Shown piece by piece: positions 20,990-43,147 of a stretch of 64,000 nucleotides of DNA. How positions within the stretch are numbered: position 1 is the first letter of the stretch; each line of letters begins with the position of its first letter. A model generated the notes under the pieces. It searched no databases, was not told the DNA's origin, and worked only from the letters and a program-made list of their open reading frames with translations. Source of the DNA: an uncultured delta proteobacterium (lineage in GTDB: Bacteria > Myxococcota_A > Polyangia > Fen-1088). The position numbers and the translations under genes are program-made. Location: the NCBI GenBank assembly GCA_963737265.1, contig CAVTRY010000011.1, forward strand, positions 96,001 through 160,000, read 5' to 3'.

Positions 20990-21732
20990 GCACGCAGGGA
21001 AGCAAGCAACAAAGCAAGAATGTCGGCTTCACTATCGACGGCAAGGAAGTGCAGGGTGAGCAGGGGCAGACCATCCTGCAAGCCGCAGCACTAGCCAACA
21101 TCTACATTCCTCACCTGTGCGCGATGCGTGGACTCTCGCCCTGGGGAAGCTGCCGCGTGTGCACAGTGCTGGTGAATGGCCGGCCGCAGGCTGCCTGCAC
21201 CATGCCCATCAGCGAGGGCATGGTGGTGGAGAATGACACCCCGGATCTCAAAGACCTGCGCAGCAGCTTGGTCGAAATGCTTTTCGTCGAGGGCAACCAC
21301 TATTGCATGTTCTGCGAGAAGAGCGGCAATTGTGAATTGCAAGCCGTGGCCTACCGGTTGGGCATTCTTTCGCCACGGCATCCGTACATGTTCCCGGCGC
21401 GCGAAGTGGACGCAAGTCATCCCGATGTGATGTTGGATTACAACCGCTGCATTTTGTGCGCTCGCTGCATACGGGCATCCCGAGAATTGGATGACAAGCA
21501 CGTGTTCCAGTTCATCAAACGGGGGGCCCACAAGCGCGTCGGTGTCAATAGCGCCAATGGCGCTGTTGCAACCAACCTTGTCGTGGACGACAAGGCTGCG
21601 GAAGCATGTCCGGTTGGTTGCATCATCAAGAAGCGCGTGGGCTTTGCCGTGCCGATTGGCCAACGCCTCTACGACAAGAAACCCATTGGCAGCGAAATCG
21701 AAAGCGGACGCGCGGCCACCAGTTCGCGGTAG
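20986..21732 (+). CDS. hoxU: Diaphorase Fe-S subunit HoxU
   Basis: IPHLC…GSCRVC…AC, HYCMFCEKSGNC, RCILCARC, CPVG; GTGA overlap with hoxF. Confidence 0.92.
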   Translation: MSTQGSKQQSKNVGFTIDGKEVQGEQGQTILQAAALANIYIPHLCAMRGLSPWGSCRVCTVLVNGRPQAACTMPISEGMVVENDTPDLKDLRSSLVEMLFVEGNHYCMFCEKSGNCELQAVAYRLGILSPRHPYMFPAREVDASHPDVMLDYNRCILCARCIRASRELDDKHVFQFIKRGAHKRVGVNSANGAVATNLVVDDKAAEACPVGCIIKKRVGFAVPIGQRLYDKKPIGSEIESGRAATSSR

Positions 21733-21740
21733 GCGGGATC

Positions 21741-22289
21741 ATGGCAAACAAACCCAAGCTGGCGACAGTATCCTTGGCCGGGTGTTTCGGCTGTCACATG
21801 TCGATTCTCGACATTGACGAGCGGATTTTGAAGCTCATTGAATTGGTCGATTTCGATCGGTCGCCGATCGACGATATCAAGAAGATCGAAGGTCGCTGCA
21901 CGGTGGGAATCGTCGAGGGCGGCTGCTGCAACGAAGAGAACGTGCATGTCTTGCAACACTTTCGCGAGCATTGCGACGTGCTGATTTCAACCGGCGACTG
22001 CGCCATCATGGGTGGCATTCCGGCGCTGCGTAACACCATCCCGCTCAAGGAATGTCTGGACGAGGCCTACTTAAAGGGACCGACGGTTTACAATCCACGC
22101 GCGCGCCTGCCGAGCGATCCGGAAATTCCACTCTTGCTCGACCGGGTCTATCCGTGCCACGAAGTGGTCAAAATGGACTACCATTTGCCTGGTTGTCCGC
22201 CCTCGGCCGAGACCATCTGGCAGGCGCTGGTGGCGCTCCTTGGCGGAAAGCCGCTGGAGCTGTCCTACGAGCTTATCAAGTACGACTGA
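21741..22289 (+). CDS. hoxY: [NiFe]-hydrogenase small subunit HoxY
   Basis: LAGCFGCHMS, GDCAIMGG, PGCPP; short one-cluster small subunit. Confidence 0.93.
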   Translation: MANKPKLATVSLAGCFGCHMSILDIDERILKLIELVDFDRSPIDDIKKIEGRCTVGIVEGGCCNEENVHVLQHFREHCDVLISTGDCAIMGGIPALRNTIPLKECLDEAYLKGPTVYNPRARLPSDPEIPLLLDRVYPCHEVVKMDYHLPGCPPSAETIWQALVALLGGKPLELSYELIKYD

Positions 22290-22307
22290 GAGCGGAGAGG
22301 AGATCCG

Positions 22308-23741
22308 ATGAGCGTTGCCAAGCGAATCGTCATCGAACCCGTGACCCGCGTGGAAGGCCACGGAAAAGTCACCATATTGCTCGACGAGAATCAAAAGGTC
22401 GTGCAGGCCCGCCTGCATGTCGTGGAATTTCGCGGCTTCGAGCGTTTCATCCAGGGGCGTCCCTTCTGGGAAGTTCCGGTGCTGGTACAGCGTCTGTGCG
22501 GTATTTGTCCGGTCAGCCACCATTTGGCCGCCGCCAAGGCCATGGACCGCATCGTGGGCGGCGAGAACCTGACGCCGACGGCGGAGAAAATTCGCCGCCT
22601 CATGCACTACGGGCAAACCTACCAATCGCACGCGCTGCATTTCTTCCATCTGGCTTCGCCCGACCTGCTGTTTGGTTTTGGCTCGGACGTCGCCACCCGC
22701 AATGTTATCGGTGTGGCGGGCAAGCATCCGGAGCTGGCGCTGCAGGCCGTGATGATGCGCAAGTACGGCCAGGAGATCATCAAGGCCACGGCAGGCAAGA
22801 AGATCCACGGCACCGGCGCCATTCCCGGCGGGGTCAACAAGAACCTGTCCATTCCCGAGCGCGACGGGTTCCTCAAGGACGTCGAGCAGCAGCTGGCGTG
22901 GGCGAAGGCGGCGGTCAAGATCGCCAAGGACTACACGGTGCAAAACCTGGCCAGTCTGGCGCCCTTCGGATCCTTTGAATCCAACCATCTGTCGCTGGTG
23001 CGCGCCGACGGTGCGATGGATCTGTACCACGGCAACCTGCGCGCCATCGACGGGCAAGGGAATATCATTTTCGAACAGGTCGACTACCAAAAGTACGTCG
23101 AACTCATCGCGGAAGAAGTCCGCGATTGGTCGTACATGAAATTTCCATTCATTCGATCGGTCGGGCCGGAAAAGGGATGGTACCGGGTGGGACCGCTGGC
23201 ACGACTCAACACCGCCGGTTTCATCGATACGCCGCTGGCCGAGGCGGAACGTAAGGAGTTTCGCGCCGTCACCGCCAACAAGCCGAACAACATCACCATG
23301 GCCTATCACTGGGCGCGCATGGTCGAATTGCTGCACGCGATGGAGAAAATCCAGGCGCTCCTCGATGACAAGGATCTGCAAGGCACGAATCTGGTGGTCA
23401 AGGGCCAGCGGCGCGAGGTCGGCATCGGTCTTATCGAAGCGCCGCGCGGAACCTTGTTCCATCACTACAAGGTGGACAAGAACGACCAGGTCGTGTCAGC
23501 CAATCTTATCGTGTCGACCACTAACAACAATGAGCCCATGAACCGGGCGGTGGCCAAGGTGGCGCAGGACCATTTACAGGGCGTGGAGATCACCGAGGGC
23601 TTGCTCAATCACGTCGAGGTCGCCATTCGCGCCTACGATCCGTGCCTTTCGTGCGCGACGCACGCGCTCGGGCAAATGCCGTTGGAAGTGACCGTGGTCG
23701 ATCTCCAAGGCGAGATCCTTTCGCAGAAGAGCAGGGGATGA
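22308..23741 (+). CDS. hoxH: Group 3d [NiFe]-hydrogenase large subunit HoxH
   Basis: EPVTRVEGHG, L1 QRLCGICPVSH, EAPRGTLFH, L2 YDPCLSCATH followed by a cleavable C-terminal tail. Confidence 0.95.
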   Translation: MSVAKRIVIEPVTRVEGHGKVTILLDENQKVVQARLHVVEFRGFERFIQGRPFWEVPVLVQRLCGICPVSHHLAAAKAMDRIVGGENLTPTAEKIRRLMHYGQTYQSHALHFFHLASPDLLFGFGSDVATRNVIGVAGKHPELALQAVMMRKYGQEIIKATAGKKIHGTGAIPGGVNKNLSIPERDGFLKDVEQQLAWAKAAVKIAKDYTVQNLASLAPFGSFESNHLSLVRADGAMDLYHGNLRAIDGQGNIIFEQVDYQKYVELIAEEVRDWSYMKFPFIRSVGPEKGWYRVGPLARLNTAGFIDTPLAEAERKEFRAVTANKPNNITMAYHWARMVELLHAMEKIQALLDDKDLQGTNLVVKGQRREVGIGLIEAPRGTLFHHYKVDKNDQVVSANLIVSTTNNNEPMNRAVAKVAQDHLQGVEITEGLLNHVEVAIRAYDPCLSCATHALGQMPLEVTVVDLQGEILSQKSRG

Positions 23742-24273: not shown

Positions 24274-24651
24274 ATGAGCGATGGAAAACACCTCATCCTT
24301 TGCGTCGATGACGACGCCGACCTTCTCGACCTTCTGCGCATGCAGCTTGAAAAGGGCGGCTATCGCGTGGAGTCGGCATTCTCGGCCGAAGAGGGCTTGG
24401 TCAAGTTCAAACAACTCCAGCCCGATCTCGTCATCCTCGATTTGATGATGGAAGAGATCGACGCCGGAACCAACCTGGTCAAGGAGCTCAAGCTGGCTGG
24501 CAATCGCGCGCCTGTGCTGCTGCTCAGCTCCATGGGCGATCAACTGAGCTTATCGACCGGCTATCGCGAGCTGGGTTTGGATGCCGTGTTTCAGAAGCCG
24601 GTGAACGCCGAGGCGCTGTTGCGTACGATCAAAGCCAAGCTCGCGCCTTAG
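24274..24651 (+). CDS. Single-domain response regulator (REC only)
   Basis: CVDDD, phosphoacceptor in ILDLMME, LLSS, QKPV; no output domain. Confidence 0.92.
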   Translation: MSDGKHLILCVDDDADLLDLLRMQLEKGGYRVESAFSAEEGLVKFKQLQPDLVILDLMMEEIDAGTNLVKELKLAGNRAPVLLLSSMGDQLSLSTGYRELGLDAVFQKPVNAEALLRTIKAKLAP

Positions 24652-24679: not shown

Positions 24680-26062
24680 ATGGAAGCAGTGGAAGGCCAT
24701 CCGTTGATTCTTTCGCACAGTCTGCTGCTGGGCGAGCGTCTGTACTTTTTCACGCGCCTGCGCTTTCTGGCCGCGCTCGGCATTCTGGTGGGAGCACCGT
24801 TTGCTACCTTCGTCGTCGGCATTCGGGGACTTGACCTCGCGGCGTTGACGGCTGCAGCGATTTTCCTGGCAACGTACAACGTCGCTATTTTCTTCGCTGT
24901 CCGACCTTTCCGCCGCCCCCAGGACGAGCCACGGATTTACCGCCGCTTGGTTGGAATTGCTCACCTCTCGATTCTCTTCGACTATTGGGTCCTGACGTAC
25001 GCCACCTGGTTGGTGGGCGGCTCGCAGTCGCCTTTCCTGGCCTTCTACCTTCTGCACGCAATTCTCGCCTGCGTGCTGCTATCGCGCCAAGCGGCCTATG
25101 TCCACGCGACCCTCGGGTACCTCCTGCTCGCCGGCCTGGTGCTTGGGGAATGGTTCGGCGTCCTCGCCAAGCACCGTCCCATCGGGGCGGTGCCCGGTGG
25201 CCCCGGGGCTGAGGTGCGCGTGGTCATGACCGTACTCTTTGTCTACGGTTTGTTGATGGCGGTAACCACCGTCCTGACGAGCGGAATCGTCCGTCTGCTG
25301 CGCGAAAGCGATCGCCGGCTGCGCGAGGCCGGCGATCGATTGGAACGCCTGGCGGACATGCGCCGCTCGTTTCTTCACGTCGTCTTGCACGATTTACGCA
25401 GCCCTGTCGGAACCGTGGTTGCCATGCTCGAAGGTTTGCACAGCGGCATCGATGGCCCTCTTGGCGAAGCACAGAAACATCGCGTGGGCAGGGCCGGCGA
25501 GCGATTGCGAGGCGTTCTTGATCTTCTGCGCGGGCTGCGCATTCTGGCCGATTTGGAGACGGAACGTCTGGACAGCATGATGGCTCCGGTGGATATGCTG
25601 GATCTGATTCGGGCCTTGGTGGAAGACCACCTTGATGCGGCCGAGCAGCGCGGGCACAGCTTGCGAACGGTTTTGCCGGCATCGCTGCCTCAGGTCCGCG
25701 GCGTCGATCGATTGATTCGCGAAGCCCTGGCCAACTACGTGTCCAACGCCATCAAATACACCGATCGGGGCGGTGCCATCACCGTTCGCGCGGAACAGGC
25801 AGGGCAGGGTGTGCGGGTTGAGGTAGCCGATAACGGGCCTGGTATCGCCGGCGAAGCGCAGAATCGCCTGTTCCAGGAATTCAATAAGGTGGGCAAGCCC
25901 GGATCGAGTTCCGGCGAAGCCGCTGGGATCGGGTTGGGTCTGTCCATCGTCCGACGCATCGCCGAGGCGCACGGCGGCAGCTTCGGCGTGGTCAGCCAGG
26001 CCGGCGAGGGCAGCATCTTCTTCTTCGAGCTGCCCGCCGTTGCCCCCGTGACGACCCGGTAG
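24680..26062 (+). CDS. Membrane-bound sensor histidine kinase
   Basis: About 5-6 TM helices, H-box VLHDLRSP, N-box NYVSNAIKY, DNGPGI, GIGLGL. Confidence 0.92.
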   Translation: MEAVEGHPLILSHSLLLGERLYFFTRLRFLAALGILVGAPFATFVVGIRGLDLAALTAAAIFLATYNVAIFFAVRPFRRPQDEPRIYRRLVGIAHLSILFDYWVLTYATWLVGGSQSPFLAFYLLHAILACVLLSRQAAYVHATLGYLLLAGLVLGEWFGVLAKHRPIGAVPGGPGAEVRVVMTVLFVYGLLMAVTTVLTSGIVRLLRESDRRLREAGDRLERLADMRRSFLHVVLHDLRSPVGTVVAMLEGLHSGIDGPLGEAQKHRVGRAGERLRGVLDLLRGLRILADLETERLDSMMAPVDMLDLIRALVEDHLDAAEQRGHSLRTVLPASLPQVRGVDRLIREALANYVSNAIKYTDRGGAITVRAEQAGQGVRVEVADNGPGIAGEAQNRLFQEFNKVGKPGSSSGEAAGIGLGLSIVRRIAEAHGGSFGVVSQAGEGSIFFFELPAVAPVTTR

Positions 26063-26347: not shown

Positions 26348-27037
26348 ATGAACAAGCAAAAAATCCCAAGCCGATGTGTAGAGCGCCTCAGTATCTACAG
26401 GCGTGCCTTGCTTCAGGATCGCTGTGCTTCTGGCCCAAGCATTTTTTCGCACCAGCTGGCGTTTGCCTGCCGGCTGACTGCGGCCCAGGTGCGGCGAGAC
26501 TTGATGCTTATCGGGTACAGCGGGAGTCCGACCACCGGTTACGAGGTCAAGCGCCTGCTTTCGTCCATCGGCACCTTGATCGATCCGCCCGAGATACGCG
26601 AGGTGGCCATTGTTGGCATGGGACACCTCGGGCGCGCCATCGCGGCCTACTTGGCCAATCGTCTGCCGAAGATTCGCCTTGCCGCGGGCTTCGATGTCAA
26701 CCCAGACAAGATCGGCGCCACGTTCAGTGGCGTGCGCTGCCATTCGGTTCAGAAACTGGCCGAGGTAGTGGCCGAAAGGAAGATCGGCCTCGGTATCCTG
26801 ACCGTACCCGCCGAGCACGCGCAGGCCGCGGCCGAGCAGTTGGTCCACGCTGGCGTCACCGGCATTCTCAACTTCGCCCCGGTGTGCCTGCACATTCCAA
26901 GTCGCGTCTCCGTCGAGAGCATCGACATGACGGTGGCTTTGGAAAAGGTGGCCTTTTTCGCCTGCGGCAGTTCTAGAAGAAAAGGAACAATCGATGACCA
27001 CAGCAGCACGAGCAACATCGACCAAACCGCTCCTTAA
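26348..27037 (+). CDS. rex: Redox-sensing transcriptional repressor Rex
   Basis: IPSRCVERLSIYRRAL, AAQVRRDL, GYEV, VGMGHLGRA, AGFDVNPDKIG, GILNFAP. Confidence 0.93.
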   Translation: MNKQKIPSRCVERLSIYRRALLQDRCASGPSIFSHQLAFACRLTAAQVRRDLMLIGYSGSPTTGYEVKRLLSSIGTLIDPPEIREVAIVGMGHLGRAIAAYLANRLPKIRLAAGFDVNPDKIGATFSGVRCHSVQKLAEVVAERKIGLGILTVPAEHAQAAAEQLVHAGVTGILNFAPVCLHIPSRVSVESIDMTVALEKVAFFACGSSRRKGTIDDHSSTSNIDQTAP

Positions 27038-27488
27038 GGAGTTTGGCGAGGCCAAGCGAGACAGTCTGATCCCGATCCTTCAGAAAGCCCAAGAGGTTCA
27101 TGGCTACCTATCGGAAGAGGCCATCGCCGAGATAGGGCGCCACCTCAAGCTTCCCGCGAGCAAGGTCTACGGCGTCGCGACCTTCTACAATCAGTTTCGC
27201 TTCACGCCCAAGGGCAAGTACCACATCATGTTGTGCCGCGGGACCGCCTGCCACGTGAAGGGCTCGCTCAAGCTGCTCGACGCGGTCACGCGTACGCTGA
27301 AATTGCAAGCCGGCCAGACCACCCGCGACGGGCTGTTCAGCCTGGAGGTCGTGGCGTGCATGGGTGCCTGCGGTTTGGCGCCGGCCATGAGCATCAACGG
27401 CGAGATGCACGCCAAGGTCACCCCCAAGAAGGTCGCTAAGCTTCTCGAAGAGTGCCGCGCCAAGGAGCAGGTCCATGCCCACGCCTGA
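26994..27488 (+). CDS. hydC: [FeFe]-hydrogenase [2Fe-2S] subunit (HydC/NuoE-like)
   Basis: LIPILQKAQEVHGYL, VATFYNQF, CRGTAC, ACMGACGLAP. Confidence 0.9.
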   Translation: MTTAARATSTKPLLKEFGEAKRDSLIPILQKAQEVHGYLSEEAIAEIGRHLKLPASKVYGVATFYNQFRFTPKGKYHIMLCRGTACHVKGSLKLLDAVTRTLKLQAGQTTRDGLFSLEVVACMGACGLAPAMSINGEMHAKVTPKKVAKLLEECRAKEQVHAHA

Positions 27489-30400
27489 GACATCTACCAA
27501 GACAACCTGTTGGACCGCGCCCTCGCAGCCAACCGCCGAGCTTTTGGCTAAGTTGCCGGTCGGTCCGCTTTCCGCGAACGCCGGCCCCAATATCGGCGAG
27601 CGCATCACCCTGCTTCGTCGCGACGAGGTGCGCAAGCCGACCATTTTGATTGGCACGGGCACCTGCGGTCTCGGCGCTGGCGCGGCCAAGACCATGGAAG
27701 CGGCGAAAGCCTACGTCGCCAAACGCATGATCGATGCGGAGGTCGTCGAGGTTGGCTGCCTCGGCATGTGCTCGGAAGAACCTATGCTCGATGTGCAGCT
27801 GCCGGGCAAGGCGCGCATCAGCTTCTGCCGAGTTACCGCCGACAAAGTTGGCGGGGTGCTCGACGCCGCCTTGGCTGGCAAGTTGCCCCAAGACGGAGTG
27901 CTCGGCCAATTCCGCGGCGCTGCCGGCGAGCCCTGGGCCAAGGTGCCCTTCCTCGACCAACACCCATTTTTCGCCCCGCAGCTGCGCTGGGTGCTTGCCA
28001 ACTCGGGCATCATCGATCCCGGCAGCATCGACGAATACATCGCGCGCGGCGGCTACAGCTCGCTGGAAAATACCCTGCGCACGAAAAAGCCCGACGAGGT
28101 TTGCGACATCGTGGCCAAGGGCGGCCTGCGCGGCCGTGGCGGCGGCGGGTTCCCCACCGGGATGAAGTGGAAGTTCGCGCGCGAGGCTCCCGGCGACCAC
28201 AAATACCTCATTTGCAACGCGGACGAGGGCGATCCCGGAGCCTTCATGGATCGCGCGGTGGCGGAAAGTGATCCCTATCGTTTGCTCGAAGGCATGGTGA
28301 TCGCGGCCTATGCCATCGGCGCCAGCAAGGCGTACATCTACATTCGCGCCGAGTACCCGCTCGCCATCGAGCGTCTGCGCGTGGCCATTCCCAAGGCCAC
28401 GGAATACGGACTACTCGGCAAGAACATCCTGGGCAGCGGTTTCGACTTGGAAATCGTGCTCAAACTTGGCGCCGGTGCCTTCGTGTGCGGTGAAGAAACC
28501 GCGCTTATGCAAAGCATCGAGGGCAAGCGCGGAATGCCACGGCCGCGACCGCCTTTCCCGGCCGTCAAGGGCCTGTTCGGCATGCCTACGGTCATCAACA
28601 ACGTCGAGACGCTGGCCTGCGTGTCCACGCTGATGGAGATGGGCGGCGATGCATTCGCCGCGGTTGGCACAGCTAAGAGCAAGGGCACCAAGGTGTTCGC
28701 GCTTTCGGGCATGGTCAGCCGCACCGGCCTCGTCGAAGTGCCCATGGGCACCACCATCCGCAAGATCGTGTTCGACGTAGGCGGTGGCAATCCCTCGGGC
28801 AAGAAATGCAAGGCGGTTCAGATCGGCGGTCCATCGGGCGGCTGCATCCCTGAACCGAAGATGGACATCATCGTCGACTACGATGCCATCAAGGAACTGG
28901 GCGCCATCATGGGCTCGGGCGGCTTGGTCGTGCTCGACGAAACCACCTGCATGGTCGACTTGGCCAAGTTCTTCATGGAGTTCATCCAGAACGAGAGCTG
29001 CGGCAAGTGCATCCCGTGCCGCGAAGGCACCAAGCGCATGCTGGAGATCTTGCAAGCCATCACCCGGCCGCGCCGGCGTGAAAACGGCAACGATGCTCTG
29101 CTGCGTTTTCAGGGCGTCATGCAGCTCAAGCAACTGGCCGAAACCATCCGCATCAGCTCGCTGTGTGGCCTCGGCCAGACCGCGCCCAATCCGGTGCTCA
29201 GCACCATGCGCTGGTTCCGCGACGAGTACGAAGCGCACATCTTCGATCGCGCTTGTCCGGCGGGCACCTGCAAGGATCTCGTCGGGGCGCCTTGTCAGAC
29301 TGGCTGTCCGGTGGGCACCGAAGTGTGGCGCTACGTCGCGCACCTTGGACGCGGCGAAACCGAGCTGGCCTATCAAGCCATCCGCGAGGCCAACCCGTTT
29401 CCGTCGGTATGCGCCCGCGTGTGCAGCCATCCCTGCGAGGATGTCTGCCGCTGCGGCGCCACGGGCGGCGAACCCATCGCGGTGCGCGCGCTCAAGCGCT
29501 ACGTGGTGGATCACGTCGATCCGTCCGCGTACCGGGTGACTCTCAAGGGCGCCACCCCCAAGTCGAAGAAGGTGGCGGTCATTGGCGCCGGACCCTCGGG
29601 CCTTACGGCGGCACACTACCTGTCGCTCAAGGGACACAAGGTCACGGTGTTCGAGAAGGAGAACGAGCCGGGCGGCATGCTTTTCAACGGCATTCCGGCC
29701 TATCGGCTGCCGCGCGACGTGGTTCGCAAGGAGATCGCGTCGCTGCTCAACGACAACATCGAGCTCAAGTGCAATATCGCCTTGGGCAAGGACGTCACGG
29801 TCGACGGTCTCTTGGCGAGCGGGTTCGACGCGGTCTACGTCTCGATCGGCGCGTACAAGAGTCAGCGTCTCGGCATCGACGGCGAGCATGTGGCCGGCGT
29901 GATTCCTGGCATGGCCTTCCTCAAGGCCAACAACTTGCGCGGCGAAACCTTGGCGCAAGGCAAGGTGGGCATCATTGGCGGTGGTAACACCGCCATGGAT
30001 GCCGCCCGCGTGGCGCTGCGCCAACCCGGGGTCGACAAGGTCACCATCCTCTACCGGCGGACGCGCGACGAAATGCCCGCCTTCGAGGAGGAGGTCCACG
30101 CCGCCCTCGAGGAGGGCATCGAGATCAAGGAGTTGGCAACTCCTGTCGCGGTGCTGTCGGAGAATGGCAAGCTCACCGGCGTGCGCCTGCTCCGCAACGA
30201 GCTCGGCGACCAGGATTCGAGCGGCCGGCGCAAACCGGTGCCGGTCAAGGGCAGCGAATTCGACGTCGCGCTCGATACGTTGATCGTGGCCATCAGCGAA
30301 CAGCCAGAGGCCGAGTCCTTCCAAGGTCTGCGCACCACCAAGTGGGGCACCATCGAGACCAACTCCGAGTCGACCGCGGCCGGCCGGCCCGGTGTATTCA

Positions 30401-30729
30401 GTGGCGGCGATGTGGCACGCGGCCCGTCGGGAGTCATCGAGGCTATCGCCGACGGCAAACGGGCCGCGCTGATGGTGGATCGCTATCTCACCGGGCGGCA
30501 GATGAAGATGATCAAGAAGGTGAAGCTACCTTCGATCTACATCGAGCCTGTGGAGGTTGACGACGACGAGGGCGAGACCATCGTGGAACGGGCCGTCGAG
30601 GACAAGGTATCGCCAGCGAAGCGGCGCAAGAGCTTCGTCGAGGTGGAAACGGGTCTGTCGCTGCAGGCGGCGACGGATGAAGCAAAAAGGTGCCTGCGCT
30701 GTGACCTGGATTTTACCCGACCCCTTTGA
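27475..30729 (+). CDS. hydB: HydB/NuoF-like FMN/NADH subunit fused to a GltD/NfnB-like FAD/NADPH domain (1084 aa)
   Basis: Trx-like domain (TCGLGAG, GCLGMCSEEP); NuoF motifs GRGGGGFPTG, ADEGDPGAFMD, GGPSGG, ESCGKCIPC; then PCQTGCP, VCARVCSHPCEDVC, GAGPSG, GIPAYRLP, GGGNTAMDAAR, YRRT, GGDVARG, EAKRCLRC. Confidence 0.9.
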   Translation: MPTPETSTKTTCWTAPSQPTAELLAKLPVGPLSANAGPNIGERITLLRRDEVRKPTILIGTGTCGLGAGAAKTMEAAKAYVAKRMIDAEVVEVGCLGMCSEEPMLDVQLPGKARISFCRVTADKVGGVLDAALAGKLPQDGVLGQFRGAAGEPWAKVPFLDQHPFFAPQLRWVLANSGIIDPGSIDEYIARGGYSSLENTLRTKKPDEVCDIVAKGGLRGRGGGGFPTGMKWKFAREAPGDHKYLICNADEGDPGAFMDRAVAESDPYRLLEGMVIAAYAIGASKAYIYIRAEYPLAIERLRVAIPKATEYGLLGKNILGSGFDLEIVLKLGAGAFVCGEETALMQSIEGKRGMPRPRPPFPAVKGLFGMPTVINNVETLACVSTLMEMGGDAFAAVGTAKSKGTKVFALSGMVSRTGLVEVPMGTTIRKIVFDVGGGNPSGKKCKAVQIGGPSGGCIPEPKMDIIVDYDAIKELGAIMGSGGLVVLDETTCMVDLAKFFMEFIQNESCGKCIPCREGTKRMLEILQAITRPRRRENGNDALLRFQGVMQLKQLAETIRISSLCGLGQTAPNPVLSTMRWFRDEYEAHIFDRACPAGTCKDLVGAPCQTGCPVGTEVWRYVAHLGRGETELAYQAIREANPFPSVCARVCSHPCEDVCRCGATGGEPIAVRALKRYVVDHVDPSAYRVTLKGATPKSKKVAVIGAGPSGLTAAHYLSLKGHKVTVFEKENEPGGMLFNGIPAYRLPRDVVRKEIASLLNDNIELKCNIALGKDVTVDGLLASGFDAVYVSIGAYKSQRLGIDGEHVAGVIPGMAFLKANNLRGETLAQGKVGIIGGGNTAMDAARVALRQPGVDKVTILYRRTRDEMPAFEEEVHAALEEGIEIKELATPVAVLSENGKLTGVRLLRNELGDQDSSGRRKPVPVKGSEFDVALDTLIVAISEQPEAESFQGLRTTKWGTIETNSESTAAGRPGVFSGGDVARGPSGVIEAIADGKRAALMVDRYLTGRQMKMIKKVKLPSIYIEPVEVDDDEGETIVERAVEDKVSPAKRRKSFVEVETGLSLQAATDEAKRCLRCDLDFTRPL

Positions 30730-30757
30730 TGGCGGCGGCAAGCAGGAAGAAAACAAC

Positions 30758-32479
30758 ATGCTGACCATCGAGATCAACGGAAAGAAGCTGGAAGCCGCCA
30801 AGGGCGAGACCATCCTCACGGTCGCGCGCCGCAACGGCATTGAAGTGCCGACCCTGTGCCACATGGAAGGGCTCATGCCGAGCGGCGCCTGCCGCATGTG
30901 CGTAGTCGACGTGGAGGGCTCTGCCAATCTCCTCACGGCGTGCTCGTACCCCGTCGTAGAGGGAATGAAGGTGCGCACGCATTCGCCGCGCGCGCTTGAA
31001 ACCCGCCGCACCATCGTGCAACTACTGCTCGCCAATCACCCGGACGACTGCCTCTACTGCTCGCGCAGCTCGAACTGCGACCTGCAGGCGCTGGCGCGCG
31101 ATCTTGGCATCAGCCGGCGCGAGTACCACGGCTTCAAGAGCAAGCAAATCCTGGACGTCTCGGGACCGTCGCTGGTGCGCGATCCCGAAAAGTGCATCCT
31201 GTGCGGCAAGTGCGTGCGGGTGTGTGAAGATATCCAAGGCGTGTCGGCCATCGACTTCGTCGGCCGCGGCAGCAAGACCGTTATTGGGACCGCGTTCTCG
31301 CGCGGGCTCGCCACCTCAAGCTGCATCAACTGCGGCCAGTGCGTGGTGGTTTGCCCGACTGGCGCGCTCGTCGAACGCTCCTACGTGCCCGAGGTGCTGT
31401 CCGCCCTGCGCGACCCGGACAAGTACCTGGTGGTGCAGCACGCGCCGGCGGTTTCGGTCACGCTGGCCGAGGAATTCGGCGTCGGGCCGGGCAGCGACTG
31501 CGACGGCCAAATGGTGGCCGCGCTTCGCCGCGCCGGCTTCAAGCGCGTGTTCGACACCAGCTTCAGCGCCGACCTCACCATCATGGAAGAGGCGTCCGAG
31601 CTGGTGCAGCGGATTCAGACGGGTGGCAAACTGCCGATGTTCACCAGCTGCTCGCCCGGCTGGATCAAATTCATCGAGGAGTTCTACCCGGACATGCTCG
31701 GACACGTCTCGACGTGCAAGAGCCCGCAGCAGATGTTGGGCGCGGTCATCAAGAGCTACTTCGCCGAACGCGAAGGAATCGACCCGGCCAAGATAGTCAG
31801 CGTGTCCATCATGCCGTGCACGGCCAAGAAGTACGAAGCTGGCCGACCCGAGATGGCGCAAAACTACGTTCCCGACGTGGACTACGTACTTACCACGCGC
31901 GAGGCTGCCCAGCTTTTGCGCATGAGCGGTGTGGGCATGCTTGGCATCGAGCCGGAAATGGCGGACACACCCTTCGGCGAGCGGTCTACGGCAGGCAAAA
32001 TCTTCGGCGCTTCCGGTGGCGTCATGGAGGCCGCCGTTCGCACCGCGCACTGGATGATCACGGGCAAGGAACTGCCCGGACTCGACGTTCAGCCGCTGCG
32101 TGGTTTAGGCGGTGCCAAAGAACTAAAGGCCAACATCGGTGGCATCGAGGTGGGGGCGGCCGTGGTCAGCGGGCTCGCCAATGCCCGCGTGCTCATCGAG
32201 CAGATTCGTGCCGGCCGCAAGGATCTTCACTTCATCGAAGTCATGACCTGTCCTGGTGGTTGCATCAACGGCGGCGGACAACCCCTACATTCAAACAAGG
32301 ACGCGGTCCTGGCGCGCATGAAGAAGCTGTACAACCTGGACCAGAACGGCAGCCTACGCGTCAGCCACGACAACAAGTCAGTCAAACGCCTGTACGAAGA
32401 ATTTCTCGGCGCGCCCCTCGGCGAAAAGAGCCACCATCTTCTGCACACGTATTACGTTGAGAGAGAGGTCTTGGTGTAA
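30758..32479 (+). CDS. hydA: Group A (A3-like) [FeFe]-hydrogenase catalytic subunit HydA
   Basis: Accessory [2Fe-2S], His-ligated and 2x[4Fe-4S] clusters; H-cluster motifs FTSCSPGW, MPCTAKKYE, EVMTCPGGCINGGGQP; IFGASGGVMEAAVRT; C-terminal SHHLLHTYY. Confidence 0.96.
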   Translation: MLTIEINGKKLEAAKGETILTVARRNGIEVPTLCHMEGLMPSGACRMCVVDVEGSANLLTACSYPVVEGMKVRTHSPRALETRRTIVQLLLANHPDDCLYCSRSSNCDLQALARDLGISRREYHGFKSKQILDVSGPSLVRDPEKCILCGKCVRVCEDIQGVSAIDFVGRGSKTVIGTAFSRGLATSSCINCGQCVVVCPTGALVERSYVPEVLSALRDPDKYLVVQHAPAVSVTLAEEFGVGPGSDCDGQMVAALRRAGFKRVFDTSFSADLTIMEEASELVQRIQTGGKLPMFTSCSPGWIKFIEEFYPDMLGHVSTCKSPQQMLGAVIKSYFAEREGIDPAKIVSVSIMPCTAKKYEAGRPEMAQNYVPDVDYVLTTREAAQLLRMSGVGMLGIEPEMADTPFGERSTAGKIFGASGGVMEAAVRTAHWMITGKELPGLDVQPLRGLGGAKELKANIGGIEVGAAVVSGLANARVLIEQIRAGRKDLHFIEVMTCPGGCINGGGQPLHSNKDAVLARMKKLYNLDQNGSLRVSHDNKSVKRLYEEFLGAPLGEKSHHLLHTYYVEREVLV

Positions 32480-32481
32480 CT

Positions 32482-32901
32482 ATGAACGAAGCAAAGACAA
32501 TTCTCGTTGTTGACGACGACCTCGACATCCTGGAACAGTACAGCCTGCTGCTGAAGGCGGACGGCTACAACGTCGTGCAAGCCAGCACCATGGCCGAGGC
32601 GGAAGAAACCATCCTCACGGTGCGCCCGGATCTGGCCATTCTGGATTTGATGATGGATGAAAGGGACGCCGGCTTCGTGCTGTGCAACCAGTTCAAGCGC
32701 ATGTATGCCGGCTTGCCCATCATCATCGTGTCGAACGTTACGCCCATCACGGGGCTCGACTTTCGGCCGCGCAGCCCGGAGGAACATTCGTGGGTGCGGG
32801 CGGATGCGATGCTGAACAAGCCCATTGTCGCCGAGCGCCTGCTCAACGAGGTGCGCCGGCTACTCAACCAGGGCCAGTCCGTCGTCGCCGCCGCACACTA
32901 G
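32482..32901 (+). CDS. Single-domain response regulator (REC only)
   Basis: VVDDD, ILDLMMDERDAG, NKPI; no output domain. Confidence 0.9.
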   Translation: MNEAKTILVVDDDLDILEQYSLLLKADGYNVVQASTMAEAEETILTVRPDLAILDLMMDERDAGFVLCNQFKRMYAGLPIIIVSNVTPITGLDFRPRSPEEHSWVRADAMLNKPIVAERLLNEVRRLLNQGQSVVAAAH

Positions 32902-32959
32902 CGTTCGGGGAGCGCGCGGTAGCTGACGTAGTGGGTGGTACAGCAGCCGGCATGCCAAG

Positions 32960-35029
32960 ATGGGAGTCTCCATGACCATCGCGCGGCCGAGATGCTTTAC
33001 CAAGACCGTGAAGGATCGCTGCCACGTCTGCTACACCTGCGTGCGTGGTTGTCCGGCCAAGGCCATCCGCATCCTGGATCGCCAGGCCGAGATCGTCGAG
33101 GATCGCTGTATCGGCTGCGGCAACTGCGTGCGGGTGTGCGGACGCGGCGCGAAGACTGTGGTCAACACCATTCCCGAGGTCGAGGCGCTGCTGGCCAGCC
33201 AGCCGCGCGTGGCGGCACTAGTCGCCCCCAGTTTTCCCGCGGAATTCCACGATCTGCTTGGGCACAAAGACGGGGACGTGTTGGTCGGGACGTTGGTCGG
33301 GATGTTGCGCAAGCTTGGCTTCGCTCTCGTCACCGAGGTCGGCTTCGGCGCCGACTTGGTCGCGCGGGGCTACCGAGAATTGCTCCACACCCGCGCGCCG
33401 GGACAACGCTATGTCGCCACCACCTGTCCTGCCGTGGTCGGCTATGTAGAGCGCTATTGGCCGGGGCTGGTCGACAATCTTGCGCCCATCGTCTCACCCA
33501 TGGTGGCCATGGCGAGAGTGTTGCGCGAAATCCACGGTCACGACCTGCGCACGGTTTTCATCGGTCCGTGCTTGGCCAAGAAAGTCGAAGCCAGCATGAG
33601 CGAGCTTGAAGGCGAAGTGGACGCGGTCATTACCTTCGCCGAGCTACGCACGATGTTCCTGTCCCACGGTATCGAGGCAGCCGCGGTCCCTCCGAGCGAC
33701 TTCGATCCGCCTCATCCCGGTACCGGCACGCTGTTCCCGCTTAACCGAGGATTGTTCCAGGCCGCGGGTATTAGCGAGGATCTGTCGACGACCGATGTGG
33801 TTGCCGCTCATGGCGGAACGTCGGCGTTTGTGACCGCTATCGAGGAATTCGCGAGTGGCGACCTTGACGCCGGTTTGGTCGAAATGCTGTGTTGCAATGG
33901 TTGTGTTTCGGGGCCAGGCATGACCGCGCACGAAAAGCCATTTCGCCGTCGGGCACGCGTGGCCACCTACGCCAACGATTCCAAGCGCAGGCGCGACGAG
34001 GACGAGTGGAAGCGGCAGATGACTCGATTCGCCGAGATCGACCTGTCGCGAACCTTTCACGCCTTCGACCAGCGGACAGCGACACCGTCCGAGGAAGAAA
34101 TTCGCACCATCTTGCGTGGCATGGGCAAGGAAGAACCAGCCGACGAGCTTGACTGCAAGGCGTGCGGGTACGCCACCTGCCGCGAACATGCGGTCGCCAT
34201 CTACCGCGGGTTGGCGGAAAGCCAGATGTGTCTGCCCTACGTCATCGATCAGTTCGACCATACGGTCAGGCAGTTGTCCGAATCGAACCAGCAACTCGAA
34301 AGCACGCAAGAACAGCTCATGCATTCCGAGCGCCTGGCCAGCATGGGCCAACTTGCCGCGGGCGTGGCCCATGAGCTCAACAATCCCCTTGGCGTGGTGT
34401 TACTCTACGCCCACCTGCTGCGCGATGAAGCCGGCGAGTCGTCGAACATGCGCAAAGAGCTGACCCTCATTAGTGATCAGGCCACGCGCTGCAAACGTAT
34501 CGTTTCCGATCTGCTCGATTTTGCGCGCGAGAACAAACTGCTTCTGGAGCCAATTGGCGTCGAAGAGCTAATCAAAAGAAGCCTGGCGGGCCTTCTCGTG
34601 CCACCGTCGATCAAGACCGTTTTCGAGTTTGGTCACGCGCATCCAGAATGCGAGGTCGATCCGGCCCAAATGATCCAAGTCCTCACCAACCTCTACAGCA
34701 ATGCCTTCGCGGCCATGTCCGACGAAGGGACGCTCACCATCGCAACCCACGAGGAAGGGGAGCGATTGGTGATCAGCGTGGCCGACACGGGCACCGGAAT
34801 CACCCCCGAGAACATGAAACACATCTTTCAGCCGTTCTTCACCACCAAGCAGATCGGCAAGGGCACCGGCCTCGGCCTGGCCGTGGTGTACGGCATCGTG
34901 AAGATGCATCGGGGCGACATCAGCATCGAATCCAACGCCGATCCCACCCGCGGTCCGACCTGGACGCGCTTCAAGGTGTCGTTCCCGCACAACCCGGCGA
35001 TGAACAATGCCGAGGCGAGACTGGGCTGA
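32960..35029 (+). CDS. Sensory (group C, histidine-kinase-linked) [FeFe]-hydrogenase fused to HisKA/HATPase
   Basis: 2x[4Fe-4S] (CHVCYTCVRGCP, CIGCGNCVRVC); H-domain APSF, ATTCPAVV, GPCLAKKVE, EMLCCNGCVSGPG; extra Fe-S domain DCKACGYATC…MCLP; H-box AHELNNP, DTGTGI, FFTTK…GTGLGL. Confidence 0.9.
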   Translation: MGVSMTIARPRCFTKTVKDRCHVCYTCVRGCPAKAIRILDRQAEIVEDRCIGCGNCVRVCGRGAKTVVNTIPEVEALLASQPRVAALVAPSFPAEFHDLLGHKDGDVLVGTLVGMLRKLGFALVTEVGFGADLVARGYRELLHTRAPGQRYVATTCPAVVGYVERYWPGLVDNLAPIVSPMVAMARVLREIHGHDLRTVFIGPCLAKKVEASMSELEGEVDAVITFAELRTMFLSHGIEAAAVPPSDFDPPHPGTGTLFPLNRGLFQAAGISEDLSTTDVVAAHGGTSAFVTAIEEFASGDLDAGLVEMLCCNGCVSGPGMTAHEKPFRRRARVATYANDSKRRRDEDEWKRQMTRFAEIDLSRTFHAFDQRTATPSEEEIRTILRGMGKEEPADELDCKACGYATCREHAVAIYRGLAESQMCLPYVIDQFDHTVRQLSESNQQLESTQEQLMHSERLASMGQLAAGVAHELNNPLGVVLLYAHLLRDEAGESSNMRKELTLISDQATRCKRIVSDLLDFARENKLLLEPIGVEELIKRSLAGLLVPPSIKTVFEFGHAHPECEVDPAQMIQVLTNLYSNAFAAMSDEGTLTIATHEEGERLVISVADTGTGITPENMKHIFQPFFTTKQIGKGTGLGLAVVYGIVKMHRGDISIESNADPTRGPTWTRFKVSFPHNPAMNNAEARLG

Positions 35030-36174
35030 TGGGCGAGCGGCTGCGCATCCTCGTCACCGACGATGAAGAAGGAATTCGTTTGGGCGTGGCGCGCGTACTT
35101 GAGAAGTTCGTCGCGAGCTTTCCCGACATTGATGCCGAGATCGCCTACGACATCGAGACCGCGGCCAGCGGCGAGGACGCGGTCGAGCGTCTGCGCGACG
35201 CGCCACCCGACATCCTGCTTCTCGATCTGAAACTGCCCGGCATGGGTGGGCTCGATGTCCTACGCGAAGCCCGCGCCCTCGATCCGCCGGTGCTCACCGT
35301 TATGATCACCGCCTTCGCCTCGGTGACTACCGCGGTCGAGGCCACGCGGGGTGGAACCTTCGATTTTCTGCCCAAGCCGTTCACGCCGAACGAAATCCGC
35401 GGCGTCGTCCGCCGCGCCACGCGCGACCTCGTCCTCAGCCGCCAGGCTCGGAAATTGGCGACCGAGCAACGTCGCACGCGTTTTGAAATCATCAGCGTGC
35501 TCGCGCATGAGCTGAAGGCGCCGCTCGGCGTGGTCGAAGGATACTTGGCGTCAATTCTCGATGGCGTGGTTTCCGACGAGGCCACGTTGCGCCGGGTGGT
35601 CAGCCGCTCGATTGCCAGAATTCAAGGTATGCGCCAGCTCATCTTCGATTTGCTCGACGTGACCCGGCTAGAAGCCGGGATGAAGGCGCGGGTGTTGGAG
35701 CCGGTGCAGCTGGCTGAAGTCGCGCGCGAGTGCATGGATGCGTTGCGAACGCAGGCTGAAGCCAAGAAGGTGTCGATGGAGCTGGGCGGCGCTGCCGACG
35801 TCGAGCTGGTCGCGGTCCGGGGCGAGGTGGAGATCGTGCTCAACAACCTGCTGACCAACGCCATCAAGTACAACCGCGAAGGCGGCAGCGTGCGCGTCGA
35901 CTTGAATCGACACGACGATCACGTCGAGATCGCCGTGCGCGACACCGGCATCGGTCTTTCGCACGAAGAGGCGGGCAAGGTGTTCAATGATTTCGTGCGC
36001 ATCAAGAACAGCAAGACGCGCGGGATCGAAGGATCGGGGCTAGGATTGGCCACGGTCAAGCGCATCGCGGGCATGTATCATGGCGTGGCCACGGTAAGCT
36101 CGGAGCCGGACCAAGGAAGCACCTTCATCGTTACCCTCAAGGCCGCAGCGCCAGAAAAGATCGCGCAACCATGA
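35029..36174 (+). CDS. Hybrid REC-histidine kinase
   Basis: ILVTDDE, LLDLKLPG, PKPF, then AHELKAP, NLLTNAIKY, DTGIG, GSGLGL; TGATG overlap with the sensory hydrogenase. Confidence 0.92.
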   Translation: MGERLRILVTDDEEGIRLGVARVLEKFVASFPDIDAEIAYDIETAASGEDAVERLRDAPPDILLLDLKLPGMGGLDVLREARALDPPVLTVMITAFASVTTAVEATRGGTFDFLPKPFTPNEIRGVVRRATRDLVLSRQARKLATEQRRTRFEIISVLAHELKAPLGVVEGYLASILDGVVSDEATLRRVVSRSIARIQGMRQLIFDLLDVTRLEAGMKARVLEPVQLAEVARECMDALRTQAEAKKVSMELGGAADVELVAVRGEVEIVLNNLLTNAIKYNREGGSVRVDLNRHDDHVEIAVRDTGIGLSHEEAGKVFNDFVRIKNSKTRGIEGSGLGLATVKRIAGMYHGVATVSSEPDQGSTFIVTLKAAAPEKIAQP

Positions 36175-38816: not shown

Positions 38817-39218
38817 ATGGGTTCTGACTACATCGCCGTCGCACTCGCCATCCTCGTCAGCGGGGGTGTAGCCCTTCAGTTTCTGGCGCTGGCGAAATTT
38901 CTTGGCGAGCGGCGCTACAGCGCGGCCAAGAACATTACCTATGAGGCAGGGTCAGATCCGGTCGGCGATCCGCGCGCCCACTTTCCGGTCCGCTTCTACC
39001 CGCTCGCCATCCTTTTCGTGGTGTTCGACATCGAAACCGCGTTTCTCTATCCCTGGGCCGTCAACTACCGACAGCTTTCGTGCGCCGGCACCCTGCGTGC
39101 AGGGGTGTGCGCGGCCGGCACTTCCATGATCGGGCTCGGAGCCGCGGCGGCCTTCATGGTGATTCTGCTCGTCGCCCTTGTCTACGCGTGGCGAAGGGGC
39201 GTCATTGGCTGGGGCTAG
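38817..39218 (+). CDS. nuoA: NADH-quinone oxidoreductase subunit A
   Basis: YEAGSDP, FYPLAILFVVFDIETAFLYPWA, YAWRRGVIGW. Confidence 0.93.
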   Translation: MGSDYIAVALAILVSGGVALQFLALAKFLGERRYSAAKNITYEAGSDPVGDPRAHFPVRFYPLAILFVVFDIETAFLYPWAVNYRQLSCAGTLRAGVCAAGTSMIGLGAAAAFMVILLVALVYAWRRGVIGWG

Positions 39219-39224
39219 CCAAAC

Positions 39225-39761
39225 ATGCCACTGACATTTTACAGCTCGAAGCTTGCCGACGCCGTCAACTGGGCGCGCAAGTATTCACTCTTCCAGTATC
39301 CCTTCGTCACCGCGTGCTGCGGAATGGAGTTCATGGCCTTGTGGGCGCCCAAGTACGATATCGGACGATTTGGCGCCGAATTTCCGCGGTTTTCGCCGCG
39401 GCAGGCCGATTTGCTCATCATCGTGGGTACCATCACCGAACGTCAGGCGCCGGTTCTTCGTCGCATCTACGACCAGATGTGCGAGCCCAAGTGGGTGATT
39501 GCCTTCGGGGTGTGTGCGTCGACCGGCGGCTTCTATCAGAACTACTCGGTCATGCCGGGCGCGGATCAGGTGATCCCAGTGGACGTGTACGTGCCTGGCT
39601 GTCCGCCCCGGCCCGAACAGGCACTCGATGCCCTGATGATCCTGCAGGACCGTATCCAGCGCGGGGAAGGTCACAGCCAGGTCGCGCTGAAACAGGAGAA
39701 GGGCTTTGACGTGCCCCTGGCGTCGATTCGGCCATCCCAGCGACATGGGGGAGGGGCCTAA
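39225..39761 (+). CDS. nuoB: NADH-quinone oxidoreductase subunit B
   Basis: TACCGMEF, SPRQAD, GVCASTGG, DVYVPGCPPRPE. Confidence 0.95.
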   Translation: MPLTFYSSKLADAVNWARKYSLFQYPFVTACCGMEFMALWAPKYDIGRFGAEFPRFSPRQADLLIIVGTITERQAPVLRRIYDQMCEPKWVIAFGVCASTGGFYQNYSVMPGADQVIPVDVYVPGCPPRPEQALDALMILQDRIQRGEGHSQVALKQEKGFDVPLASIRPSQRHGGGA

Positions 39762-39781
39762 ACGCACGGGCCCAAACAACG

Positions 39782-40273: not shown

Positions 40274-40275
40274 CC

Positions 40276-43131: not shown

Positions 43132-43147
43132 ACCGAGAGACTAGACA

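Follow-up and report, generated by a model that had tools for sequence, protein, structure and literature searches.

What does a bifurcating-type [FeFe]-hydrogenase do when the domain of HydB that docks ferredoxin has been exchanged for a flavin module? The question is raised by a hydCBA locus in a 64,000-nucleotide stretch of DNA from an uncultured delta proteobacterium (GTDB lineage Myxococcota_A; Polyangia; Fen-1088; GenBank assembly GCA_963737265.1, contig CAVTRY010000011.1, positions 96,001 to 160,000 of the forward strand), the whole of which we call the window and whose positions are used below. Three genes on the plus strand make up the core of the locus: hydC, encoding a NuoE-like protein of 164 aa (26994–27488; PF01257, E 2.9e-51); a hydB::gltD fusion gene of 1084 aa (27475–30729), recognized from its single open frame and its Pfam domains; and hydA, encoding an M3-type [FeFe]-hydrogenase of 573 aa (30758–32479), recognized from Pfam domains, Protein Data Bank (PDB) matches and motifs. 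A preliminary description, made from the sequence without database searches, had placed the same three genes at 26994–32479 and proposed that the enzyme couples H2 to both NAD(H) and NADP(H). Its gene content stands and its start of hydA has been corrected: the frame is open from 30557, and the real start is the ATG at 30758, eight bases after an AGGAAG ribosome-binding site.

Exchange of the C-terminal domain of HydB

The N-terminal part of the fusion protein is built like a bifurcating HydB. A thioredoxin-like [2Fe-2S] domain (approximately residues 56–140, with C64, C95 and C99; 27640–27894, plus strand like all features below) is followed by the FMN/NAD(H) domain (Complex1_51K, PF01512, residues 213–384, E 2.2e-45; 28111–28626) with the motifs RGRGGGGFPTG, GDPGAFMD (252–259) and GAGAFVCGEE, by an SLBB domain (407–455) and the loop GGPSGG (451–456), and by the NuoF [4Fe-4S] domain of cluster B1/N3 (NADH_4Fe-4S, PF10589, residues 495–588, E 3.9e-30; 28957–29238). 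A zinc-hinge ligand set spans this last domain (28948–29271), formed by C492 of TTC (490–492), H588 of EAH (586–588) and C594 and C599 of CPAGTC (594–599); a Zn-stabilized linker is known in HydB and StnB (PMC10482914). The bifurcating-type signatures named in the preliminary description could all be located, and the two loops are invariant in our alignments. In alignment A1, conservation of C64, C95 and C99 is 90% or higher, and in alignment A2 C95 and C99 are invariant; the B1 ligands (C509, C512, C515 and C564) as well as the four Zn ligands are invariant in the 18 fused sequences of alignment A1, the Zn ligands being common to the unfused paralogues too. Structurally, residues 20–597 of the HydB model align to T. 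maritima HydB (7p5h_B, 4–564) with Z 37.5.

The source genome (6.55 Mb in 25 contigs) offers its own comparison, as it holds two further hydCBA operons, on contigs C22 and C23, whose HydBs both end in a Fer4 dicluster (2x[4Fe-4S] ferredoxin) domain. The nearest unfused HydBs elsewhere come from metagenome-assembled genomes (MAGs) of Thermoguttaceae and Ca. Kuenenia and are 62–68% identical over residues ~14–603. The window HydB is collinear with the paralogues and with these relatives up to the Zn-hinge motif CPAGxC...L; past the hinge, the unfused HydBs run into two CxxCxxCxxxCP motifs, whereas the window HydB continues as APCQTGCPVGTEVWRYV, the start of a GltD-like module. The junction (KDLVG, 29272–29286) was set by alignment with the own-genome paralogues and with loci L067, L072, L029 and L037. 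A Pfam scan of the window HydB returned no Fer4 dicluster domain (B3/B4), which the paralogues carry at the same position. Because the protein is collinear to the hinge, keeps the Zn and B1 ligands and differs from the paralogues in its tail, the B3/B4 ferredoxin-like domain has been cleanly replaced: by these alignments, the Zn hinge is the exact boundary at which a ferredoxin-docking domain was swapped for a module of ~480 aa predicted to hold FAD and two [4Fe-4S] sites. The replacement of the ferredoxin domain by an FAD oxidoreductase, as first described, is borne out by the Pfam domains and the junction alignment.

The module opens with a DPD_II/Fer4_20 domain (PF14691, residues 598–681, E 4.3e-22; 29266–29517), whose two [4Fe-4S] sites involve the conserved cysteines C607, C611, C646, C650, C654 and C658 and which includes Lys674 (codon 29494–29496). 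The FAD and NAD(P)H Rossmann domains follow (Pyr_redox_2, PF07992, residues 698–994, E 2.5e-24; 29566–30456), with GAGPSG (704–709), GGGNTAMDAAR (835–845), in which GGGNTA has the form GxGxxA, and YRRT (860–863) leading to EMPA; these motifs are common to StnC, NfnA, NfnB and NfnL in the alignments. After a linker of low confidence (residues 1012–1034, 30508–30576; predicted local distance difference test, pLDDT, <50 in the AlphaFold2 model), the protein closes with a permuted tail (residues 1044–1077, 30604–30705) that carries EAKRCLRC (1069–1076), was delimited by alignment to NfnB 10–43 and to the ends of the StnC and NfnA inserts, and supplies with C1073 and C1076 the first two cysteines of the distal [4Fe-4S] site, otherwise missing; both are invariant in the 18 sequences. 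The AlphaFold2 model of HydB has a mean pLDDT of 74.2 and a predicted template modelling score (pTM) of 0.52, and within it the tail is modelled confidently (pLDDT ~80–85, helix 1063–1075).

Authenticity of the fusion

A fusion of two known parts invites the suspicion that assembly or gene calling has wrongly joined two genes, and we found no point in support of that suspicion. The gene is one open frame of 1084 codons, and 119 of the 120 homologue clusters listed (query included) cover at least 96% of its 1084 aa at 63–100% identity, with source names from many phyla. A scan of species-representative genomes (one genome per species), of which the best 80 loci were analysed and which drew on generic NuoF patterns so that the window's own clade was not recovered, gave at least 41 loci fused in a single frame and two with a frame break. 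A metagenome scan queried with the C-terminal half did recover the window clade: among the 31 loci analysed of the 80 returned, 18 contigs at 82–97% identity carry a continuous hydB::gltD gene, and two further contigs at ~57–67% identity have the same gene order. Short contigs of relatives from two other runs span the junction (X2 record 30 at 29163–29345; X11 record 12 at 29220–29334); the read-run contigs of relatives are all short, none covering the whole stretch. With full-length homologues, continuous metagenome genes and junction-crossing contigs in hand, the artefact that the preliminary description had allowed for is already refuted, and we give it next to no chance. Contigs from RNA libraries (X19) cover the GltD part; none of them crosses the junction by at least 31 nt, and they are hence no evidence of expression.

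Published relatives of the architecture

The preliminary description had left novelty to be checked, and the same architecture turns out to be published. From genomes only, Zheng and Huang (2024, mSystems; PMC11406978) described a 'sub-type I' BfuB in which B3/B4 are replaced by a DPD_II domain and a C-terminal FAD/NAD(P) domain, found it in Hydrogenedentota and several other phyla, and called it previously unreported. The window locus shares with sub-type I BfuABC the DPD_II and FAD/NAD(P) domains after the NuoF core, hydC upstream and hydA downstream, a HydA of the M3a type whose fifth P1 residue is Ser, and a spread over many phyla. By its architecture, the locus belongs to the sub-type I BfuABC variant. 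The class is thus already on record, biochemically uncharacterized: our full-text literature search, with subscription papers and supplements outside its scope, found no purified or assayed enzyme of the HydB::GltD kind, and the earlier concern that the architecture might already have been characterized biochemically was not borne out. A text search of PMC11406978 found neither 'NADP' nor 'GltD' nor 'glutamate synthase', and no link is made there to NADP, GltD or Nfn; a word search of the main text of Schut 2022 found no mention of a BfuB-GltD fusion, which the supplementary clade tables of that paper may hold. Our contribution is to class the module with the Stn/NfnABC enzymes, to locate the exchange precisely, to give evidence that modules have been exchanged and that other catalytic partners occur, and to describe the genomic setting.

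A related case is found in archaeal hybrid [FeFe]/[NiFe] hydrogenase complexes, whose HydB has a glutamate-synthase domain (Cell 2024, PMC11216029). Going by that description, they resemble the window enzyme in having a NuoF-like HydB fused to a GltD-like domain and differ in being archaeal and in their catalytic subunits.

Identity of the flavin module

The preliminary description had called the module GltD/NfnB-like. Its best matches of solved structure (residues 605–1077) lie elsewhere, namely in the NADP(H) modules inserted in Stn/NfnABC enzymes: C. saccharolyticus NfnA (9bov_A, 3e-103), T. sibiricus NfnA (9n5u_A, 5e-101) and S. ovata StnC (8oh5_C, 1e-94), behind which come T. maritima NfnB (4ylf_B, 2.7e-86) and then NfnL (5jca_L), GltD (6s6s_G) and DPD. 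The best PDB matches of the fusion protein are correspondingly split, residues 56–606 being nearest to NfnB/HydB chains and residues 605–1077 to NfnA/StnC inserts. Topology tells the same story, as the module is a circular permutation of NfnB, with NfnB (4ylf_B) 10–43 (...EAQRCLQC) matching window residues 1044–1077 and the NfnB body (46–462) matching 606–1008; the early observation that the EAxRCLxC motif had moved to the extreme C-terminus is confirmed by this alignment. The segments of StnC and NfnA are ordered as in the window module, from PCxxxCP at the start to EAxRCLxC at the end. The fold agrees as well: model residues 598–1078 superpose on 9bov_A 97–567 with Z 44.8 and an rmsd (root-mean-square deviation) of 2.4 A over 458 residues, and on 8oh5_C with Z 43.9 and alignment through residue 1079, while NfnL (5jca_L) aligns to model residues 600–1007 only (Z 36.0).

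A single residue speaks to function. K674 (RALKRYV) of the window protein, invariant in a 14-sequence family alignment, stands at the position of StnC K170, where T. maritima NfnB and P. furiosus NfnL have Glu (LERFV); in all NfnABC enzymes that Lys ligates the [4Fe-4S] cluster beside the non-bifurcating FAD, and Glu is the mark of the bifurcating NfnL (PMC10482914, PMC12018979). By sequence, topology, Lys ligand and predicted fold, then, the module is best classed as Stn/NfnABC type. Descent from NfnB or GltD was considered and is ruled out by the permutation, the Lys ligand, the best matches, the fold and a tree of the GltD part (FastTree only). NfnAB/NfnSL large subunits and GltD do share a homologous FAD/NADPH fold with two [4Fe-4S] sites; they differ in having their CxxC at the N-terminus, in being free subunits with an NfnA/NfnS or GltB partner and, for NfnB/NfnL, in the Glu.

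The same residue bears on the suggestion of two bifurcation centres, in which the FMN/FeS centre would be joined by a second bifurcating flavin, the added FAD, acting like that of NfnB. Zheng and Huang (PMC11406978) postulated such a second bifurcating FAD for sub-type I, and the homology of the module to NfnB would allow for it. Here, however, the module has Lys and not the Glu ligand of bifurcating NfnL/NfnB, the FAD of Stn/NfnABC-type modules is described as non-bifurcating (PMC10482914, PMC12018979), and no NfnA/NfnS-like partner gene is found among the genes of the operon; both the Lys ligand and the module type argue against the postulate, which we consider highly improbable for this enzyme.

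Likeness to StnABC/NfnABC (8oh5, 9bov, 9n5u/9n5v) extends to a HydBC-like core, the permuted NADP(H) module and the Lys at the proximal cluster. In those enzymes, however, the module is inserted in a NuoG-like A subunit without an H-cluster, where it feeds the mid-potential input branch, and their B subunit keeps B3/B4; in the window enzyme the module sits on HydB, where it takes the place of B3/B4, and the H-domain of the A subunit is complete. The Stn-type loci in our sample (L085, L091, L095, L096, L100 and L108) differ from the window locus.

Some remote NuoF-GltD fusions (rows P0127, P0130 and P0137 of alignment A1; 35–40% identity) look different: their FMN and B1 motifs are degenerate, and residue 674 is Glu where the others have Lys. 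They appear to form a separate family that perhaps lacks FMN.

HydA, HydC and maturation

The partner subunits complete an [FeFe]-hydrogenase. HydA has, by Pfam, a [2Fe-2S] domain, a His-ligated [4Fe-4S] domain, a 2x[4Fe-4S] domain and the H-domain, with the motifs P1 TSCSPGW, P2 MPCTAKKYE and P3 EVMTCPGGCINGGGQP, the latter two canonical; among solved structures it is closest to the bifurcating A3 enzymes from T. kivui (8a6t_A, 2.6e-179) and A. woodii (7q4v_A, 1.5e-177). The P1 sequence had raised the suspicion of an inactive, Stn-like remnant, a possibility ruled out by the intact P2 and P3 and by the same TSCSPGW in A. woodii HydA1 (7q4v_A) and both HydA paralogues of the source genome; Ser is common at that P1 position (PMC11406978). 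HydC has all four cysteines of its [2Fe-2S] cluster C1, in CRGTAC (81–86) and CMGAC (122–126). The H-cluster maturases are encoded in the genome, all above curated cut-offs: HydE (TIGR03956, 318.6 bits), HydF (TIGR03918, 543.8 bits) and HydG (TIGR03955, 485.9 bits). The best explanation of these features is that the locus encodes a functional trimeric group-A3-like [FeFe]-hydrogenase, HydA-HydB-HydC.

Group A2 [FeFe]-hydrogenases, as defined in HydDB, pair HydA with a separate GltD-like subunit and have no NuoE/NuoF subunits. The window enzyme has both a NuoE- and a NuoF-like subunit, carries its GltD-like part as a fusion to HydB and has a HydA nearest to A3 enzymes, so that group A2 does not apply; the features of group A3 are found in the H-cluster motifs, the NuoF-like HydB with its loops, the NuoE-like HydC and HydEFG, and are missing in the B3/B4 domain. 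The label of an A2/A3 hybrid, proposed at first, is not supported: the nearest solved relatives of HydA, from T. kivui and A. woodii, are A3 enzymes, and those of the module are StnC/NfnA inserts. Compared with canonical HydABC (T. maritima 7p5h, T. kivui 8a6t, A. woodii 7q4v), the window enzyme has the same HydA (E ~1e-179), HydC, HydB core up to the Zn hinge and gene order C-B-A, and differs by a HydB without the C-terminal 2x[4Fe-4S] ferredoxin-like domain; the Bfu family has been defined by an invariant BfuBC core that includes the B3/B4 clusters (PMC9304861).

Proposed reaction and its alternatives

Functionally, the solved Bfu enzymes provide the template. A mid-potential donor passes electrons through the A subunit and B1 to the FMN, where NAD+ is reduced, and a mobile HydC-type domain takes low-potential electrons to B3/B4 and ferredoxin (PMC10482914, PMC12018979); ferredoxin has been observed to bind between the C-terminal domain of NfnC and the ferredoxin-like B3/B4 domain of NfnB, and the GAFMD and GGPSG loops are named as Bfu signatures (PMC12018979). 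The window enzyme retains the gating parts, namely HydC, the N-terminal [2Fe-2S] domain, the GAFMD and GGPSGG loops and the Zn ligands. Because these parts are kept while the gated branch now ends in an NADP(H) module, we favour a coupling of H2, NAD and NADP. Electrons from H2 would travel along the clusters of HydA and over B1 to reach the FMN in HydB, where the one branch would reduce NAD+, and the gated branch, by way of the mobile [2Fe-2S] cluster of HydC, would lead through the two [4Fe-4S] clusters of the module and its non-bifurcating FAD to NADP+, instead of through B3/B4 to ferredoxin. The net reaction would be 2 H2 + NAD+ + NADP+ <-> NADH + NADPH + 2 H+, free of ferredoxin. As far as sequence can tell, an enzyme of H2, NAD and NADP that is independent of ferredoxin is a reasonable reading, and we put the chance that it works as a gated H2:NAD+/NADP+ oxidoreductase without the use of ferredoxin at a little under even.

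NADPH has a physiological potential of about −380 mV. NADH lies at about −280 mV and H2 at −414 mV at 1 bar (Schut 2022), and with these three potentials the proposed reaction would be near equilibrium at low H2 pressures. In one direction it could make NADPH from H2 of low partial pressure, pulled by the reduction of NAD+, and in the other it could vent NADH and NADPH as H2.

Several points weigh against this proposal. NADH-using GltD-like proteins are known. The specificity for NADP(H) that we propose rests on motifs only, that is, on the GxGxxA motif, proposed by Kremp et al. to mark NADP(H) use (PMC7483475), and on the YRRT..EMPA stretch shared with the NADPH-using StnC, NfnA and NfnB. Ferredoxin could still dock on the module, since in NfnSL electrons reach ferredoxin by way of the corresponding two [4Fe-4S] clusters of NfnL (PMC10482914); the authors of the archaeal hybrid complexes guess at such binding for the glutamate-synthase domain of their HydB (PMC11216029). 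The redox span between NAD and NADP is small, so that gated bifurcation may be unneeded and a plain NAD(P)H hydrogenase possible. Ferredoxin-linked routes are not lacking in the genome, which also has two canonical HydABC operons and NfnAB. Lastly, the hinge residues 560–610 have a pLDDT <50 and the pTM is 0.52, so the AlphaFold2 model does not fix the placement of the module relative to the core. Our search of the full-text literature found the bifurcation 2 H2 + NAD+ + NADP+ <-> NADH + NADPH for no purified enzyme.

One alternative is a non-bifurcating NAD(P)H hydrogenase of the S. wolfei type, in which the FMN would bring H2 into equilibrium with NAD(H) and the FAD would do so with NADP(H), without energetic coupling of the two nucleotides. 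HydABC enzymes whose HydB is without B3/B4 have been reported as non-bifurcating (PMC9304861, PMC11406978), and the window HydB is without that domain. Such an enzyme would nevertheless have kept, invariant, the GAFMD and GGPSGG loops, the N-terminal [2Fe-2S] domain, the Zn hinge and HydC, and an ungated wire between FMN/NAD and FAD/NADP would act as an uncoupled transhydrogenase and should collapse the NADPH/NADH disequilibrium; we regard this reading as unlikely.

Docking of ferredoxin on the [4Fe-4S] clusters of the module would make NADP(H) a fourth substrate, regulatory or an alternative acceptor, and the enzyme would combine H2/NAD/ferredoxin bifurcation with Nfn-like chemistry. The NfnSL route just mentioned is the argument for it. 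In the solved Stn/NfnABC enzymes, however, this type of module only passes NADPH electrons inward (PMC10482914); the permuted tail completes the distal cluster as in StnC, where that cluster faces a protein-bound cluster and not solvent; and the docking site that has been seen experimentally needs the ferredoxin-like domain that is missing here (PMC12018979). We therefore think ferredoxin docking improbable, though not negligibly so.

If the proposed H2/NAD/NADP reaction is true, soil and peat anaerobes would have a direct, ferredoxin-free link from H2 to both pyridine-nucleotide pools, and with it a route to NADPH from trace H2 or a vent for NADH and NADPH together. With its acceptor swapped and its gate kept, the enzyme would further serve as a natural experiment on the site and the mechanism of gating of the low-potential branch in the HydBC core, and the canonical paralogue in the same genome allows a clean comparison.

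Evolution and alternative partners

Evolutionarily, the NuoF core and the module have different histories. In a tree of the NuoF core, the window protein and its close fused relatives form a well-supported clade nested among unfused HydBs (support 98 inside 99 in FastTree with 100 rows; 99 inside 99 in an IQ-TREE quick run with 38 rows), and other fused genes fall in several other clades. A single origin of all HydB::GltD fusions is rejected by an approximately unbiased (AU) test on the NuoF core (19 fused versus 19 other rows, lnL difference 154, p-AU 9e-159), for which the fused group had been named after the first tree was seen. In the module tree (FastTree only, 71 rows), by contrast, the HydB-fused modules come together with support 87, beside the Stn/NfnA inserts and apart from NfnB and GltD, and the window clade groups with modules of Acidobacteriota, Gemmatimonadaceae and Planctomycetaceae MAGs (support 100) whose NuoF parts fall elsewhere. 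Exchange of the module between HydB lineages is the simplest reading, because the two trees group the sequences differently, and this suggests that the module has moved.

Close relatives keep the operon, seen in about 20 independent metagenome contigs. The synteny HydC-(HydB-GltD)-HydA, put forward earlier as something to look for, is conserved, with the HydA H-domain after hydB::gltD in 16 of the 16 close-relative loci that extend that far, and the order Rex-hydC-hydB::gltD-hydA-RR-hydS, in which RR is a response regulator, is kept in the metagenome contigs of relatives. Receiver and HydS genes lie downstream in 14 related loci; of the 17 related loci long enough to show it, 16 have rex ahead of hydC (it was not detected in L121), and 12 related contigs have HoxH upstream of rex. 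Among unfused HydABC operons, the nearest likewise have a HydS-kinase gene downstream (e.g., L067, L069 and L071–L074).

Farther afield the partner varies. Of the 41 fused species-sample loci, 10 continue past the fusion with a complete HydA, nine with an FdhA-like formate dehydrogenase and five with a small FeS protein and a Glu_synthase-domain protein (one of the five in a Promethearchaeota MAG with glutamate dehydrogenase genes nearby); in another five only a NuoG-like N-terminus comes next, one locus (L064) has a complete second hydCBA set, and in the remaining 11 the gene is undetermined or cut off. We tentatively entertain the possibility that HydB::GltD is an exchangeable NADP(H) end-piece of Bfu-type enzymes that would turn a ferredoxin branch into an NADP(H) branch. 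Paired with HydA it would make a hydrogenase in which electrons are divided or combined between the two pyridine nucleotides only, and it would act likewise with formate dehydrogenase or glutamate-synthase-like partners in other phyla, including an Asgard archaeon.

Two of these partner types deserve a description of their own. L029 (9030–11393), L032 (9207–11475) and L063 (9075–11372), as well as L030 and L031, have behind hydC and hydB::gltD the genes for a small 2Fe-2S/4Fe-4S protein and for a Glu_synthase-domain protein of ~527 aa; these loci stem from MAGs of Acidobacteriota, Gemmatimonadaceae and Promethearchaeota (Loki), and glutamate dehydrogenase genes lie nearby (L063 11520–12770; L032 3343–4872). 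They may encode an uncharacterized Bfu-type enzyme of glutamate metabolism. In L033 (8985–11699) and L043 (8978–12043), as in L040, L045, L048, L055, L056, L060 and L103, HydB::GltD is followed by an A subunit of the molybdopterin formate-dehydrogenase type, which makes these loci a putative NAD/NADP-linked variant of formate dehydrogenase.

Genomic setting

The hydCBA genes and their flanking genes form a compact plus-strand operon. Upstream lies a gene for a rex-like redox-sensing repressor (26348–27037; 229 aa; PF06971 Put_DNA-bind_N and PF02629 CoA_binding), which overlaps the start of hydC by 44 nt. Downstream come a response regulator receiver protein (32482–32901; PF00072), a sensory [FeFe]-hydrogenase-like domain fused to a histidine kinase (HydS-HK; 32960–35029; PF02906, PF04060, HisKA and HATPase_c) with the motifs ATTCP, GPCLAKK and CCNGC, and a hybrid receiver/histidine kinase (35026–36174; PF00072, PF00512 and PF02518). 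These flanking genes suggest that a Rex-like NADH sensor and an H2-sensing HydS-histidine kinase system control expression, which fits a redox valve. The trio of receiver, HydS-kinase and hybrid kinase (32482–36174) is conserved behind the operon in 14 related contigs, and a paralogous HydS-kinase follows the canonical hydCBA on contig C22.

The third hydCBA set of the genome, on contig C23 (164856–169063; L024), has its HydA matched in two adjacent pieces in different frames (166578–166111 and 166109–164856) and a hydC-like open reading frame that is unusually long (339 aa); it may contain a frameshift or a split gene. A GltBD and the canonical NfnAB are also encoded elsewhere in the genome. 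On contig C7 (237856–241713; L026 1857–5714), a protein of 1285 aa carries a GltD-like module that matches the window module to tail residue 1076 and has a C-terminal Fer4 domain as well; its gene adjoins a CoA-enzyme-activase DUF2229 gene.

Upstream in the window, a Hox-type [NiFe]-hydrogenase cluster (18992–23741) begins with a fused HoxE-HoxF of 665 aa (PF01257, PF01512 and PF10589) and continues with HoxU-, HoxY- and HoxH-like genes, after which come a receiver (24274–24651) and a histidine kinase (24680–26062). Downstream, a nuo operon (38817–44287) comprises nuoA, B, C and D, a short NuoG-like gene (524 aa) and nuoH. Between D and G it has no nuoE and no nuoF; contig C23 holds a NuoE/NuoF-like pair at ~523.2–525.0 kb.

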